The translations under genes were made by a program, and so were the position numbers. This document shows, in pieces, positions 42,601-51,600 of a stretch of DNA of 64,000 bases. The stretch spans positions 22,258,001-22,322,000 of the forward strand of contig OZ024765.1 in the NCBI GenBank assembly GCA_964016885.1, in the 5' to 3' direction. Numbering within the stretch: the stretch's first letter is position 1; each line of letters opens with the position of its first letter. Source of the DNA: Eledone cirrhosa (taxonomy: Eukaryota). Under the pieces are notes generated by a model. The model was not told the DNA's origin and made no database searches. It saw nothing but the letters and a program-made list of their open reading frames with translations.

Positions 42601-45600
42601 TCTCAGGTTCCAAATAATGGGATGCCAGGCGGCATTGAAATATATAGACTGTGAAACCCCACATACTCGTGGAATCGTAAATATCTTCCATGATTCTTCA
42701 GGGCTTTTTCATAGCAATATATCACTAACTTATCAATAACAATATAACATATTTGCTGGCCTATTAGACACCCCTTCACATAAGACGCTCCCCCTTTTTT
42801 TTATCATATTTTACGTTATATTTTGACGTTTATAGGTATTTTTATGGATCACATCCAATATTTGCAGTTTTTCACTCTTCACGGGTGCTCCAGGAGTGTA
42901 GCCCTCGCGAATACTGGGGGACAACTGTATATATATATATATATATATATATATATATATATATATATACACACACTTACATATATACATATGTATAACC
43001 CCCAGTTATTGCTGATACTCATTTTCAGCTGAGTATACTGGAGCAACGTGAAATACCATCTTCCTCTCCAAAATGCCCACCTCTCCAATATACCCACCTC
43101 TCCAATATATATCTACCTCTCCAATTTACCACCAGGTGATAGCATACCCACCTCTCCAATATACCCACATCTCCAATATATACCTACCTCTCCAATATAT
43201 ACCTACCTCTCCAATATACCCACCTCTCCAATATACCTACCTCTCCAATATACCTACCTCTTCAATATACCTACCGCTTCAATATACCTACCTCTCCAAT
43301 ATATACCTACCTCTCCAATATACCTACCTCTCCAATATACCACCTACTTCTCCAATATACACCTACCTCTCCTTTATACTTACCTCTTCAATATACCCAC
43401 CTCTCCAATATACCTACCTCTCCAATATACCCACCTCTCCAGTATACCTACCTCTCCAATATAGCCACCTCTCCAGTATACCCACCTCTCCAGTATATAT
43501 ACCTCTCCAATATATACCCAGCTCTCCAATATACATGCCTCTCCAATATACCCACCTCTCCAATATATCTACCTCTCCAATATATACCCACCTTTCCAAT
43601 ATATACCCACCTCTCCAATATATACCCACCTCTCCAATATATATCCACCTCTCCAATTTACACCAGGTGATAGCATATAACCACAGGTTAGCCAGACTCC
43701 ACCATATACCTCTCCAATATACCCACCTCTCCAATATACCCACCTCTCCAATATACCACCTACCTCTCTAATATACCTACCTCTCCAATATACCCACCTC
43801 TCCAGTATATATACCTCTCCAATATATACCCACCTCTCCAATATATACCTACCTTACCAATATACCTACCTCTCCAATATACCCACGTCTCCAATATATA
43901 TATACCTCTCCAATATACCCACCTCTCCAGTATATATACCTCTCCAATACACCCAGCTCTCCAATATATCCACCTCTCCAATATACCCACCTCTCTAGTA
44001 TATATACCTGTCCAATATATACCTATGTATATCCAATATACCCACCTCTCCAGTATACCCACCTCTCCAGTATATATACCTCTCCAATATATACCTACCA
44101 CTCCAATACACCCAGCTCTCCAATATATCCACCTCTCCAATATACCCACCTCTCTCGTATATATACCTCTCCAATATATACCAACGTATATCCAATATAC
44201 CCACCTTCCCAATTTACCGACCTCTCCAATATATACACCTCTCCAGTATATATACCTCTCCAATATATACCTACCTCTCCAATATATACCTACCTCTCCA
44301 ATATACCTATCTCTCCAATATACCCACCTCTCTCGTATATATACCTCTCCAATATATACCTATGTATATCCAATATATCCACCTCTCCAGTATATATACC
44401 TCTCCAATATATACCTACCTCTCCAATATATCCACCTCTCCAGTATATATACCTCTCCAATATATACCTACCTCTCCAATATATCCACCTCTCCAATATA
44501 CCCACCTCTCTCGTATATATACCTCTCCAATATATACCAACGTATATCCAATATACCTACCTCACCAATATATATCCACCTCTCCAATTTACCACCAGGT
44601 GACAGCATATAACCACAGGTTAGCCAGACTCCACCATATACCTCTCCAATATACCCACCTCTCCAGTATACCTACCTCTCCAATATATATCTACCTCTCC
44701 AATTTACCACCAGGTGACAGCATATAACCACGGGTTAGCCACACTCCACCATATACCTCTCCAATATACCCACCTCTCCAGTATACCTACCTCTCCAATA
44801 TATATCTACCTCTCCAATTTACCACCAGGTGACAGCATATAACCACGGGTTAGCCACACTCCACCATATACCTCTCCAATATACCCACCTCTCCAGTATA
44901 CCTACCTCTCCAATATATATCTACCTCTCCAATTTACCACCAGGTGACAGCATATAACCACGGGTTAGCCACACTCCACCATATACCTCTCCAATATACC
45001 CACCTCTCCAGTATACCTACCTCTCCAATATATATCTACCTCTCCAATTTACCACCAGGTGACAGCATATAACCACGGGTTAGCCACACTCCACCATATA
45101 CCTCTCCAATATACCCACATCTCCAGTATACCTACCTCTCCAATATATATCTACCTCTCCAATTTACCACCAGGTGACAGCATATAACCACGGGTTAGCC
45201 ACACTCCACCATATACCTCTCCAATATACCCACCTCTCCAGTATACCTACCTCTCCAATATATATCTACCTCTCCAATTTACCACCAGGTGACAGCATAT
45301 AACCACGGGTTAGCCACACTCCACCATATACCTCTCCAATATACCCACCTCTCCAGTATACCTACCTCTCCAATATATATCTACCTCTCCAATTTACCAC
45401 CAGGTGACAGCATATAACCACGGGTTAGCCACACTCCACCATATACCTCTCCAATATACCCACCTCTCCAGTATACCTACCTCTCCAATATATATCTACC
45501 TCTCCAATTTACCACCAGGTGACAGCATATAACCACGGGTTAGCCACACTCCACCATATACCTCTCCAATATACCCACCTCTCCAGTATACCTACCTCTC

Positions 45601-48600: not shown

Positions 48601-51600
48601 CTACCTCTCCAATTTACCACCAGGTGACAGCATATAACCACGGGTTAGCCACACTCCACCATATACCTCTCCAATATACCCACCTCTCCAGTATACCTAC
48701 CTCTCCAATATATATCTACCTCTCCAATTTACCACCAGGTGACAGCATATAACCACGGGTTAGCCACACTCCACCATATACCTCTCCAATATACCCACCT
48801 CTCCAGTATACCTACCTCTCCAATATATATCTACCTCTCCAATTTACCACCAGGTGACAGCATATAACCACGGGTTAGCCACACTCCACGTGGCCAAACA
48901 AATCGTCGAGCACGGCCGATCACTTCGACTGCAACCCTTCAATAGTTATCGAAGACGATTCAATCTGAGACCTTACGCCACATTCTTCCAGCTCACAGGT
49001 GAGTGTACGAGATTTCCTCATTGTGTGGATGTGTGGGTGGGGGTGTGGGGTGTGGGTGTGTGTGGGGGGGGGGGAGGAGTTGTGTATACATATACACATA
49101 CATATACATATACATATACATATACATATACATATACACATACATATACATATACATATACACATACATATATATATATACATATACACATACATATACA
49201 CATACATATACATATACATATATATATACATATACATGTACATATACATATACATATACACATACATATACACATACATATACATATACATATATATATA
49301 CATATACATGTACATATACACATACACATACATATACACATACATATACATATACATATACACATACATATACATATACATATACATATACACATACATA
49401 TACACATACATATACATATACATATACACATACATATACATATACACATACATATACATATACATATACATATACATATACATATACATATACACATACA
49501 TATACATATACACATACATATACATATACATATACATATACACATACACATACATATACATATACATATACACATATATATACATATACATATACATATA
49601 CACATACATATACACATACCCATACACATACACATACACATACATATACATATACATATACACATACACATACATCCATATACACATACACATACCCATA
49701 CACATACATATACACATACACATACCCATACACATACACATACACATACATATACATATACATATACATATACACATACATCCATATACACATACACATA
49801 CCCATACACATACACATACACATACATATACATATACATATACATATACACATACATCCATATACACATACACATACCCATACACATACATATACACACA
49901 CATATACACATACACATACATACATATACACATACACATACCCATACACATACATATACACATACATATACATATACACAAAACATATACACACATGCAG
50001 AGATTGTCTATGCGTGTAGAGCAGGTTATTCAGGTGTGTGGGAAGTTTAGACAGGTGTGGAGGTGTGTTTATAACTTTGAGGATGTCACGAAGTGAAAAT
50101 ATGAAAGAAACAGAACCACTTTATGAAGGAATTCCACTTTGTTTGAAAACAAAAGGGTCCGTCATCCTTTGGTATATATTATTACTCATAACCAGTCACA
50201 CATTATGTGTGGGCATATATGTATATATATATATATATATATGTATATATATATATATATATGTAGGAGGTGAGTTTTATTGTAGTACAATAAAGCAATG
50301 CAGATATCGGATAAGAAGCACTCTACAGTTTGTAGGACTGGAGTATACATAATATAAGATCAAAAGATGGTTAAAGGAGTTCCATGTATTTTATTATGCG
50401 CATTTCAAAAACAAACATCATCATGCAATAATATTTGTGTTTTCATCAGATAAAACAGGAGAACATGATATGAAGGCTAAAAACACTTGTGGATAGTGCA
50501 GTTTTAAATCAACATATCTTGATTTAAAACTGCACTATCCACAAGTGTTCTTTAGCCTTCATATCATGTTCTCCTGTTTTATCTGATGAAAACACAAATA
50601 TTATTGCATGATGATGTTTGTTTTTGAAATGCGCATAATAAAATACATGGAACTCCTTTAACCATCTTTTGATCTTATATTATATATATATATATATATA
50701 TATATATACACATACACATACCCTTCCACCACCTGTTTTACCCCCCTTTTAATTTCAGTTTATTTTGATCATGCTTTTATATTTAAATTTATTTCATTCC
50801 TTGTATTTTGATCATGCTTTATTTTTATTTTTTATTTCATTCGCACCGTTTCCTTTCGCTATATGCCTCTCCCCCACTCCCCTACACACCCTTTGAACTC
50901 TGTTCCCACACACTTCCCACCTGAGGAAGGGCTTATGCCCGAAACGTCGTCCCCCACCAACACCCCCACTCTCCAGAGCGTGAAATTAATAAACATTCGT
51001 TGTACTGCCTCTCTGTTTTGTTCCTGTTCAAATTTTTCCATTATATATATATATATATATATATATATATATATATTTATATATATCATTCATTTAAATT
51101 ATTGACGTATTGTTTTATTGATATTTTTTATCTGTTTGTCCCGAATCTTCTATTATCGATTTTTTATCGTATGGTTGATTGTAGACTTGTTCTATATGTG
51201 ACGGTATTTTAACGATAGTTATAGCTCTGATTCATCTGAATTATTGAGCCCTCTGCCGCTCATTTCGAATCTTGTTTATCGTGAACTCGTGCGCCGATTT
51301 TTCGATACTCGATCTTTCTAATACATATATATATATATATATATATATATATATATATATATATATATATATATATATATATATACATATATATATATAT
51401 ATAGATAATTTAATATATCAACTAACATAAGCGCACAGATGCACGCCCATGCCAGCAAATACACAGGTTATGTCATAGTACCTAGGTGGTTCAATGCAGG
51501 AGAATGCAGAACAATAATATAAAGGACGTAAAATAAGAAAATATTTTTTTAAAAAAATTTAAAAAAAATTTTTTTCTTACTTAAATTTTCACTCCAACTA

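Follow-up and report, generated by a model that had tools for sequence, protein, structure and literature searches.

Splice sites caught up in tandem duplications have been described in several systems, which are summarized here from the portions of each source drawn on for this comparison. In lancelets, mirage minisatellites (BflGb6/BflGb9, Adh3, TnC, PGBD5; PMC3087553, PMC3902484) repeat the 3' end of an intron together with the 5' part of the next exon, in units of 10-160 bp (PMC3087553). At BflGb6, for instance, 3-6 copies of a 150-160 bp unit of intron end and exon start are present, and RT-PCR suggests that splicing is unaffected (PMC3087553); the Adh and TnC mirages are reported to give no aberrant mRNA (PMC3902484). 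In 844ins68 of human CBS, 52 intron and 16 exon bases are likewise duplicated: splicing goes to the downstream acceptor, which removes the extra copy (PMC7490669), the mRNA is mostly wild-type (PMC1334203), and traces of another transcript are reported as nuclear only. The ABCA7 intron 18 VNTR also carries a splice site in its unit, and use of the site in the next unit produces a decay-sensitive frameshift. Array length there tracks exon 19 skipping and expression, and not use of the duplicated site, which stays at about 2% as one-unit retention whatever the length (PMC5954066). Drosophila ratchet points, finally, place AG/GT inside long introns; when their donors are weakened they lose to a competing donor and a cryptic exon is included (PMC8605326). 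Re-splicing is itself reported to be blocked by the exon junction complex (PMC8184009).

The locus considered here lies in Eledone cirrhosa (GCA_964016885.1, contig OZ024765.1, 22,258,001-22,322,000, forward strand), a stretch of 64,000 nt that we call the window. As in the lancelet mirages, an intron end and the start of the next exon stand in tandem, the unit falls in the 10-160 bp range, splice signals are kept, the host gene is intact, and inner copies are homogenized while edge copies have diverged. Unlike them, the array belongs to a cephalopod mollusc and to a COX gene, and its 37 regular plus 2 older copies are about 99% identical, where the lancelet cases compared have 3-7 units with identities of 81-100%; it is known from DNA anatomy, whereas the lancelet mirages are known from splicing outcome and length polymorphism as well. 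CBS 844ins68 has one extra 68-bp copy with a few divergent bases rather than a 37-copy array, and the ABCA7 repeat lies on the donor side with a 25-bp unit that lacks exon sequence. Ratchet points are single, conserved and equipped with strong donors, in contrast to a weak COX donor that is repeated 39 times and is simply the ancestral exon start. On these comparisons, the architecture is one already described in lancelets and human CBS; the idea of an unusual device finds no support, and the array is likely a tolerated repeat rather than a means of control. A literature search whose scope took in few subscription journals listed neither a cephalopod mirage nor any work on intron 8 of this gene.

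The host gene and the anatomy of the array

The gene model comprises EGF-like, membrane-binding and peroxidase-fold exons, with a PF03098 match in the window, and its protein is 82% identical to Octopus vulgaris COX over 606 aa with one gap. Exon 8 contains the Tyr385/His388-equivalent motif, and the Ser530- and His207-equivalent motifs are present in the 611-aa model as well. A candidate signal-peptide exon at 18589 was taken as exon 1, and exon 9 is accordingly counted as the ninth of ten. Exon 9 matches COX-1 with an E value of 2e-9; a weak protein search with exon 9 against longer proteins gave two candidates, neither significant. Exon 8 ends in CAG, in phase 0, with the consensus donor GTGAGT, and exon 9 is directly followed by the consensus donor CAG/GTGAGT. 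Judged from this model, the octopod COX/PTGS gene is intact despite the array in intron 8, as the earlier note had claimed for the other exons. In addition to the array, the intron contains a (CAC)-type repeat and microsatellites.

Table 1. Features of the COX gene and of the array in intron 8, in window positions.
Feature	Position	Strand	Basis or remark
Whole COX/PTGS2-like gene model	18589..54216	+	ten exons, 611 codons, single stop, terminal; exon 1 candidate only
COX exon 8, 287 nt	37277..37563	+	tblastn with O. vulgaris COX
Intron 8, 11,290 nt	37564..48853	+	longest of nine introns
Degenerate 17-bp C/T/A minisatellite, about 86 copies	43063..44593	+	TRF; 75% matches
Oldest decoy, acceptor plus about 10 exon-like bases	43136..43146	+	19/36 head bases differ
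Old decoy head	43667..43702	+	3/36 bases differ from exon 9, all amino-acid-changing
37 tandem 115-bp units	44599..48853	+	sequence, TRF; unit junction also in X1/X2 contigs and one X5 read pair
True COX exon 9, 145 nt	48854..48998	+	PDB match to COX-1/COX-2; tblastn
COX exon 10, coding part through stop	53783..54216	+	tblastn; start is the loose end of a contig of run X4

Each unit joins the 36-nt head of exon 9 to 79 nt of intron end that close in CAG. Forty junctions of an acceptor with an exon head are present: the true one at 48854, 37 regular ones from 44599 to 48739 at a spacing of exactly 115 bp, and the older pair at 43136 and 43667. The array of 39 decoys on a 115-bp unit proposed in the earlier note is thus borne out, with some refinement. 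The 36 nt said to be identical to exon 9 are so in 35 of the 37 units, the exceptions being 44599 (two differences) and 46669 (one); the two diverged copies are both present, though that at 43136 keeps only about 10 exon-like bases. Against their consensus, 26 of the 37 units are identical and 11 carry one or two base differences, with shared variants clustered in units 15-16 and 30-32. TRF scores the array at about 8,600 with 98-99% matches, beyond chance. All 39 decoys retain the CAG acceptor, and AG/GT (AG/GTGA) occurs at all 40 junctions. Both old copies sit inside the 17-bp minisatellite, whose motif is that of the acceptor pyrimidine tract, and the outer copies at 43667 and 44599 have two differences from exon 9 in common. 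A dispersed mobile element was considered and rejected, as all 35 occurrences of a junction-spanning 24-mer in the 3.0-Gb assembly lie within the array (reversed control, 0).

The array is real. Might an assembler nonetheless have inflated one or a few units? The copy number estimate is rough, no read spans the array, and runs X1 and X2 may come from the assembled sample itself and hence not be independent. Yet deep DNA contigs of both runs contain the unit junction, and a cyclic 145-nt unit contig reaches a depth of 52 (X1) and 75 (X2), where the listed neighboring low-copy contigs mostly lie at 2-9 (one at 24). One read pair of X5, from a second animal and another study, crosses the junction too. 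Clusters of shared variants and diverged outer copies also speak against inflation, and we regard it as very unlikely. Depth, measured roughly against a single reference contig, suggests about 23 copies per haplotype versus about 35 in the assembly, a gap that may reflect alleles of different length.

Reading through a decoy and the probable choice of the last acceptor

Past the 36-nt head, only the copy at 48854 continues into GTGGCC, as the earlier note held; decoys run into CATATACC. Reading on from each of the 37 regular decoys gives 42 codons and then TAA, for a predicted product of 461 aa. Decoy use would in this way truncate the enzyme ahead of the part that holds the Ser530 equivalent, in line with the earlier proposal. 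The common stop expected for decoys applies to all 37 regular copies and to neither old one: reading from 43136 and 43667 ends after 211 and 34 codons, respectively. Since the differences in the old copies (3 and 2) all change amino acids, there is no sign of coding constraint. Copies that are "in phase" are so only in register with the repeat, 115 being no multiple of 3; repeat exons kept in frame were rejected on this ground, as the frame is lost with one or two units and stops appear with three.

In our view the array is probably a mirage minisatellite on the intron 8/exon 9 boundary, a likely neutral passenger that leaves the transcript when intron 8 is spliced out. Its unit crosses an intron-exon boundary in tandem, has minisatellite size (115 bp) and keeps its splice signal, and the cluster has evolved in concert to the exclusion of its edges (26 of 37 units identical; 43667 and 44599 diverged). 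A copy of the boundary may have arisen where the 17-bp repeat of the pyrimidine tract and a short CTCCA shared with exon 9 allowed slippage or unequal crossing-over; later turnover would have homogenized the inner copies, while those at the edge decayed.

In an 11-kb intron, exon 9 would likely be defined by the pairing of its acceptor with the next strong donor. By a rough hand-set matrix (scores in bits), the donors of exons 8 and 9 both reach 8.0, and no GT site of at least 4 bits lies between 43000 and 48998. The exon 9 donor follows the last acceptor by 145 nt and the next two by 260 and 375 nt; from the first regular decoy the distance grows to 4.4 kb, implying an exon of 4,400 nt. Because only the last few acceptors lie near a strong donor, the last would win, and exon definition is the likely means of its selection. 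Any leak would fall mainly on the one or two copies before the last; nonsense-mediated decay would clear the resulting transcripts, and the leak would be no larger in an array with more copies. The notion that the spliceosome must pick the last of some 40 locally identical acceptors therefore holds for the local sequence and not for the context, as donor distance sets them apart. As up to 38 acceptors share their local sequence and differ only in that distance, the array offers a natural test of exon definition.

Some observations run against the neutral reading. By the same matrix, none of the gene's nine acceptors scores lower than that of exon 9 (3.9 bits, the others 5.0-8.3); the next-to-last copy would give an exon of 260 nt, a plausible size; 38 near-identical acceptors far exceed the 3-7 units of the lancelet cases compared; and a splice-site VNTR does alter exon skipping with its length in ABCA7 (PMC5954066).

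Could array length instead act as a dial, with longer alleles diverting transcripts to decoys or to exon 9 skipping and so lowering productive COX mRNA? The premature stop behind every decoy, with its 461-aa product from the 37 regular copies, the weak exon 9 acceptor and the link of ABCA7 VNTR length to exon 19 skipping and expression (PMC5954066) would suit such a device, as would allele-length variation if the depth estimate of about 23 versus about 35 copies, from one reference contig, means that. However, duplicated-site use in ABCA7 is put at about 2% and unaffected by length (PMC5954066), and the terminal site is the one reported as used in mirages and CBS (PMC3087553, PMC3902484, PMC7490669, PMC1334203). 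Each added copy, moreover, lies further from the exon 9 donor. Run X4, of unrecorded kind but RNA-like, was treated as RNA because one of its contigs joins exon 9 to exon 10; this contig covers only 48959-49000, at depth 2.7, and does not reach the exon 8 junction. Its contigs contain no unit sequence, which is weak evidence against the dial, given the low depth and the tendency of contigs to drop rare forms. A copy-number dial on COX mRNA is, in our judgment, unlikely.

A related scheme would have decoys used and then corrected, with re-splicing or nested splicing restoring the proper exon 8-9 junction. Because exon 8 and the unit both close in CAG and the unit opens with GTGACA, mis-splicing would recreate a donor, and each unit becomes a possible 115-nt GT-AG intron. 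As at ratchet points, every acceptor directly abuts GT, at all 40 junctions, and the recreated donor (2.8 bits by the rough matrix) matches those of exons 2 and 6 (2.7 and 2.8). It lacks a G at +5, however, and scores far lower than the donors of exons 8 and 9 (8.0 bits each), unlike the strong, outcompeting donor of a ratchet point; weakened Drosophila ratchet donors are reported to lose, with inclusion of a cryptic exon (PMC8605326), and the exon junction complex to block re-splicing (PMC8184009). Nor is AG/GT specific to the array. GT opens four exons of this gene (5, 6, 9 and 10) and is also found at the start of exon 9 in the neighboring paralogue, where that exon is single-copy, for which reason AG/GT as an adaptation of the array was rejected. 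Self-correction of this kind strikes us as quite unlikely. It is improbable, too, that the 37 identical AG/GT junctions form a working ladder, in which a measurable share of COX transcripts first splices to a decoy and is then rescued from the recreated donor or lost to decay, so that octopods with arrays of different length would differ in prostaglandin-synthase output; were that so, a function would have been shown for a mirage for the first time. Under the neutral mirage reading, cephalopods join the animals with such arrays, through a large and very homogeneous example; the array would gain in importance only with decoy use that is measurable and length-dependent.

Minisatellites and splice sites elsewhere in the genome

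This genome is rich in local minisatellite arrays. The survey covered 986,486 bases flanking exons of kinases and peroxidases (two gene families with predicted boundaries, in stretches cut at 5-10 kb), of which 124 arrays with a period of at least 30 and at least 3 copies occupy 6.6%. Periods of at least 100 are found in 6 of the 124, and, within stretches of that length, none exceeds 8.5 copies. Two arrays (L113 and L146) ending just before acceptors proved on inspection to contain no exon sequence. A first survey with 16-mers flagged 2 of 155 exon matches, a PKG-like donor copy and a kinase-match duplication; the latter match is broken by four stops and is absent from the boundary test.

That test took only sites of at least 2 bits, 240 of a possible 310. 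With the array's own site excluded, 2 of the 240 putative splice sites recur nearby, where random array origin predicts 1.1-1.7; one of the two is a clear donor-side mirage. These tiny counts suggest that splice sites are duplicated at about the rate predicted by random minisatellite origin, and that duplication of this kind affects roughly 0.4-0.8% of the genome's splice sites (95% range about 0-3%), a rate with consequences for annotation and for intron gain of the Rogers type.

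The exon 9 acceptor inside a minisatellite

The earlier note's description of 43063-48998 is borne out by inspection of the sequence, and a pattern search finds 40 junctions of acceptor and exon head: the true acceptor of COX exon 9 at 48854, 37 regular decoys and two older copies. Of the 115-bp units, 26 of 37 are identical and 11 carry one or two base differences, and one variant recurs in five units that form two clusters; the TRF score of the array is ~8,600, with 98-99% matches. The 36-nt head had been called identical to exon 9, which holds for 35 of the 37 regular units and fails for the other two. 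All base changes in the head at 44599 (2/36) and in the older copy at 43667 (3/36) alter the amino acid, and ~10 exon-like bases are left in the 43136 copy. Within the unit, the intron-derived portion is composed of the motif of the 17-bp minisatellite at 43063-44593. Searching the 3.0-Gb assembly for a 24-mer that bridges the unit junction gives 35 exact matches, every one within the array. Four anatomical features of a mirage, a lancelet-type minisatellite whose unit spans an intron/exon boundary, are found here.

Tandem arrays, decoy junctions and recurring donors (window positions, unless a surveyed stretch, L, or assembly contig, G000:C, is named)
Feature	Position	Strand	Detail
Regular decoy junctions	44599 to 48739		n=37, exact 115 bp spacing; pattern search
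Older decoy junctions	43136 and 43667		pattern search
Degenerate 17-bp minisatellite	43063-44593		TRF
Minisatellite, 65 bp x 61	1633-5598
Minisatellite, 17 bp x 131	16005-18229		directly upstream of candidate exon 1
Minisatellite, 30 bp x 18	30404-30954		40 nt behind exon 5 donor
Minisatellite, 55/60 bp x 38	60629-62799
Decayed donor-side mirage	L053:4140-4860 (G000:C1:322,459,190 region)		~nine 36-bp units, two keeping exon end and donor; behind presumed ERK/MAPK-like kinase exon
Single extra donor copy	L143 (G000:C22:284,716 region)	minus	~7 exon bases, donor, ~110 nt intron; 362 nt behind presumed PKG-like kinase donor

Four of seven sequencing runs, none of the seven recorded as RNA, were compared with 48775-49030. 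A cyclic 145-nt contig of the unit is present in X1 (depth 52.3) and in X2 (75), two runs of one sample that may be the one assembled. Another X2 contig, 122 nt long and mapping to 44099-44220, with a mean multiplicity of 2.1 in the assembly, has a depth of 6.89, or ~3.3 per copy, which gives ~23 units where the assembly predicts 34.6; taken from this one reference contig, the depth ratio supports tens of copies and fixes no exact number. Over the unique portion of exon 9 neither run has a contig, an absence that proves nothing. In X5, raw RAD reads of a different sample, from a different study but labelled as the same species, one read pair falls inside the array and one mate spans a unit junction with 49 letters on its short side, so a second animal has at least two units. 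We regard an assembly artefact as very unlikely.

Acceptor choice and its consequences

Nine exons were placed by tblastn and a signal-peptide candidate at 18589 brings the total to ten; the resulting 611-codon model contains one stop and, over 606 residues, is 82% identical to the Octopus vulgaris protein. Exon 9 aligns to solved COX-1/COX-2 chains (best E 2e-9), its residues 10-48 with 444-482 of the 600-residue COX-1 precursor, and for the last exon identity is 81% with O. vulgaris prostaglandin synthase and 60% with an unnamed protein clustering with cuttlefish PTGS2, which marks the animal as an octopod. The O. vulgaris COX model P0027 (546 aa) lacks the stretch matching exon 5 with its conserved His motif, possibly an isoform or annotation error. 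Joining exon 8 to any regular decoy would, by computation, give 42 codons and then a stop, for a product of 461 residues; the two older copies would stop after 211 and 34 codons. Because what we take to be the Ser530-equivalent position lies beyond the decoy stop, the earlier note was right that decoy use truncates the enzyme ahead of it.

The last acceptor and the regular decoys, 38 in all, are locally identical and differ in downstream context: the computed exon is 145 nt from the last, 260 and 375 nt from the next two, and 4,400 nt from the first. On a rough matrix with hand-set weights, in bits, the exon 9 donor (consensus CAG/GTGAGT) scores 8.0, no GT site in 43000-48998 reaches 4, and the exon 9 acceptor is the lowest of the gene's nine (3.9 vs 5.0-8.3). 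Across long introns, recognition pairs an acceptor with the donor that follows it inside a few hundred bases (exon definition), and intron 8 is 11,290 nt long. Exon definition would favour the last acceptor, with leak expected at one or two copies before it and further copies contributing nothing. Some leak to decoys is likely, given the weakest acceptor of the nine and the plausible 260-nt exon from the next-to-last copy. X4, a run of unrecorded kind taken as RNA from its exon 9-exon 10 join, yields a single contig of 155 nt at depth 2.7. This contig spans 48959-49000 and then enters exon 10 at its start, which shows exon 9 to be spliced at the predicted donor. X4 has no contig on the unit or exon head, which, as contigs drop rare forms and depth is low, neither shows nor excludes decoy use. 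A protein search with exon 9 found none spanning the exon 8 junction.

We consider the array probably a neutral, recently homogenised minisatellite that is removed with intron 8. The published account of the lancelet globin BflGb6 describes tandem units of intron end and exon start (150-160 bp; 6 and 3 in two haplotypes; 81-100% identical), edge copies left out of homogenisation, and RT-PCR suggesting undisturbed splicing (PMC3087553). The Adh and TnC mirages generate no aberrant mRNAs (PMC3902484); in CBS 844ins68, where 52 bases of intron and 16 of exon are duplicated, splicing removes the upstream copy (PMC7490669) and the mRNA is mostly wild-type (PMC1334203). Literature searches found no cephalopod mirage and nothing closer. 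That copy number acts as a dial on productive COX mRNA, as the earlier note proposed, seems unlikely. Its best case is the ABCA7 VNTR, for which the study reports exon 19 skipping that increases with length and a duplicated donor used at ~2%, constant over VNTR lengths (PMC5954066). Another reading, quite improbable in our view, is a re-splicing ladder in which every unit formally counts as a GT-AG intron of 115 nt: CAG closes both exon 8 and every unit, and GTGACA opens every unit, so that mis-splicing would recreate a donor. The rough hand-set matrix gives this donor 2.8 bits, on a par with two real donors of the gene but far under the 8.0 of the exon 9 donor. In Drosophila, a cryptic exon is included once a ratchet donor is weakened (PMC8605326). 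GT also begins 4 of the 9 internal exon starts, and AG/GT opens the single-copy exon 9 of a downstream COX-like paralogue, so that the motif must, judging by sequence, predate the array.

Arrays around other exons

The survey took in 155 exon hits with their surroundings, in 115 stretches totalling 986,486 bases. It used 104 of 138 kinase hits, leaving out the top 30 and four others, mostly with long frames, and 51 of 53 peroxidase hits, leaving out the two COX hits. Non-simple arrays (period at least 30, at least 3 copies) number 124 and occupy 6.6% of these bases; 38 have at least 10 copies. From 310 possible splice sites, 70 lacking a site above threshold, 240 predicted sites (128 acceptors, 112 donors) were tested, and two, both donors, recur nearby. 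With random starting points for the arrays, founding units are computed to include 1.1-1.7 of the 240 sites; the recurrence matches such a chance origin, on small counts. Among the eight remaining acceptors of the COX gene, none recurs nearby. The COX array stands out by its size, as no more than 8.5 copies were seen in any of the six survey arrays of period at least 100, whose stretches had been cut at 5-10 kb. The gene names at the two recurring donors are our assumption from motifs; the L143 copy lies beyond a SINE-like insert.

In 42 of the 124 arrays the units resemble those at other loci (several, L057-L156), and a frequent 48-bp unit looks derived from a dispersed SINE-like repeat. Minisatellites at L146:3488-3976 and L113:3283-3996 stop no more than a few dozen bases from a kinase acceptor; at L146 the unit consists of a pyrimidine tract that closes with TAG, giving ~20 acceptor-like sites without exon sequence.

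Neighbouring features

A second, diverged COX-like gene stands in tandem ~27 kb beyond the window end (G000:C26, ~22,349,000-22,383,000, plus strand; L003-L007), with at least weak matches for all of exons 2-10; its exons are individually 33-52% identical to those of O. vulgaris COX. It has Leu at what we take to be the Tyr385 equivalent and altered motifs in the presumed His207 and Ser530 regions, so normal cyclooxygenase activity may be absent. At 51395-53416, within intron 9, three tandem ~572-bp units (99.7% identity) are followed by an inverted 236-bp copy (100%); this arrangement would give the pre-mRNA a long perfect hairpin on which, in a cephalopod, A-to-I editing might act.
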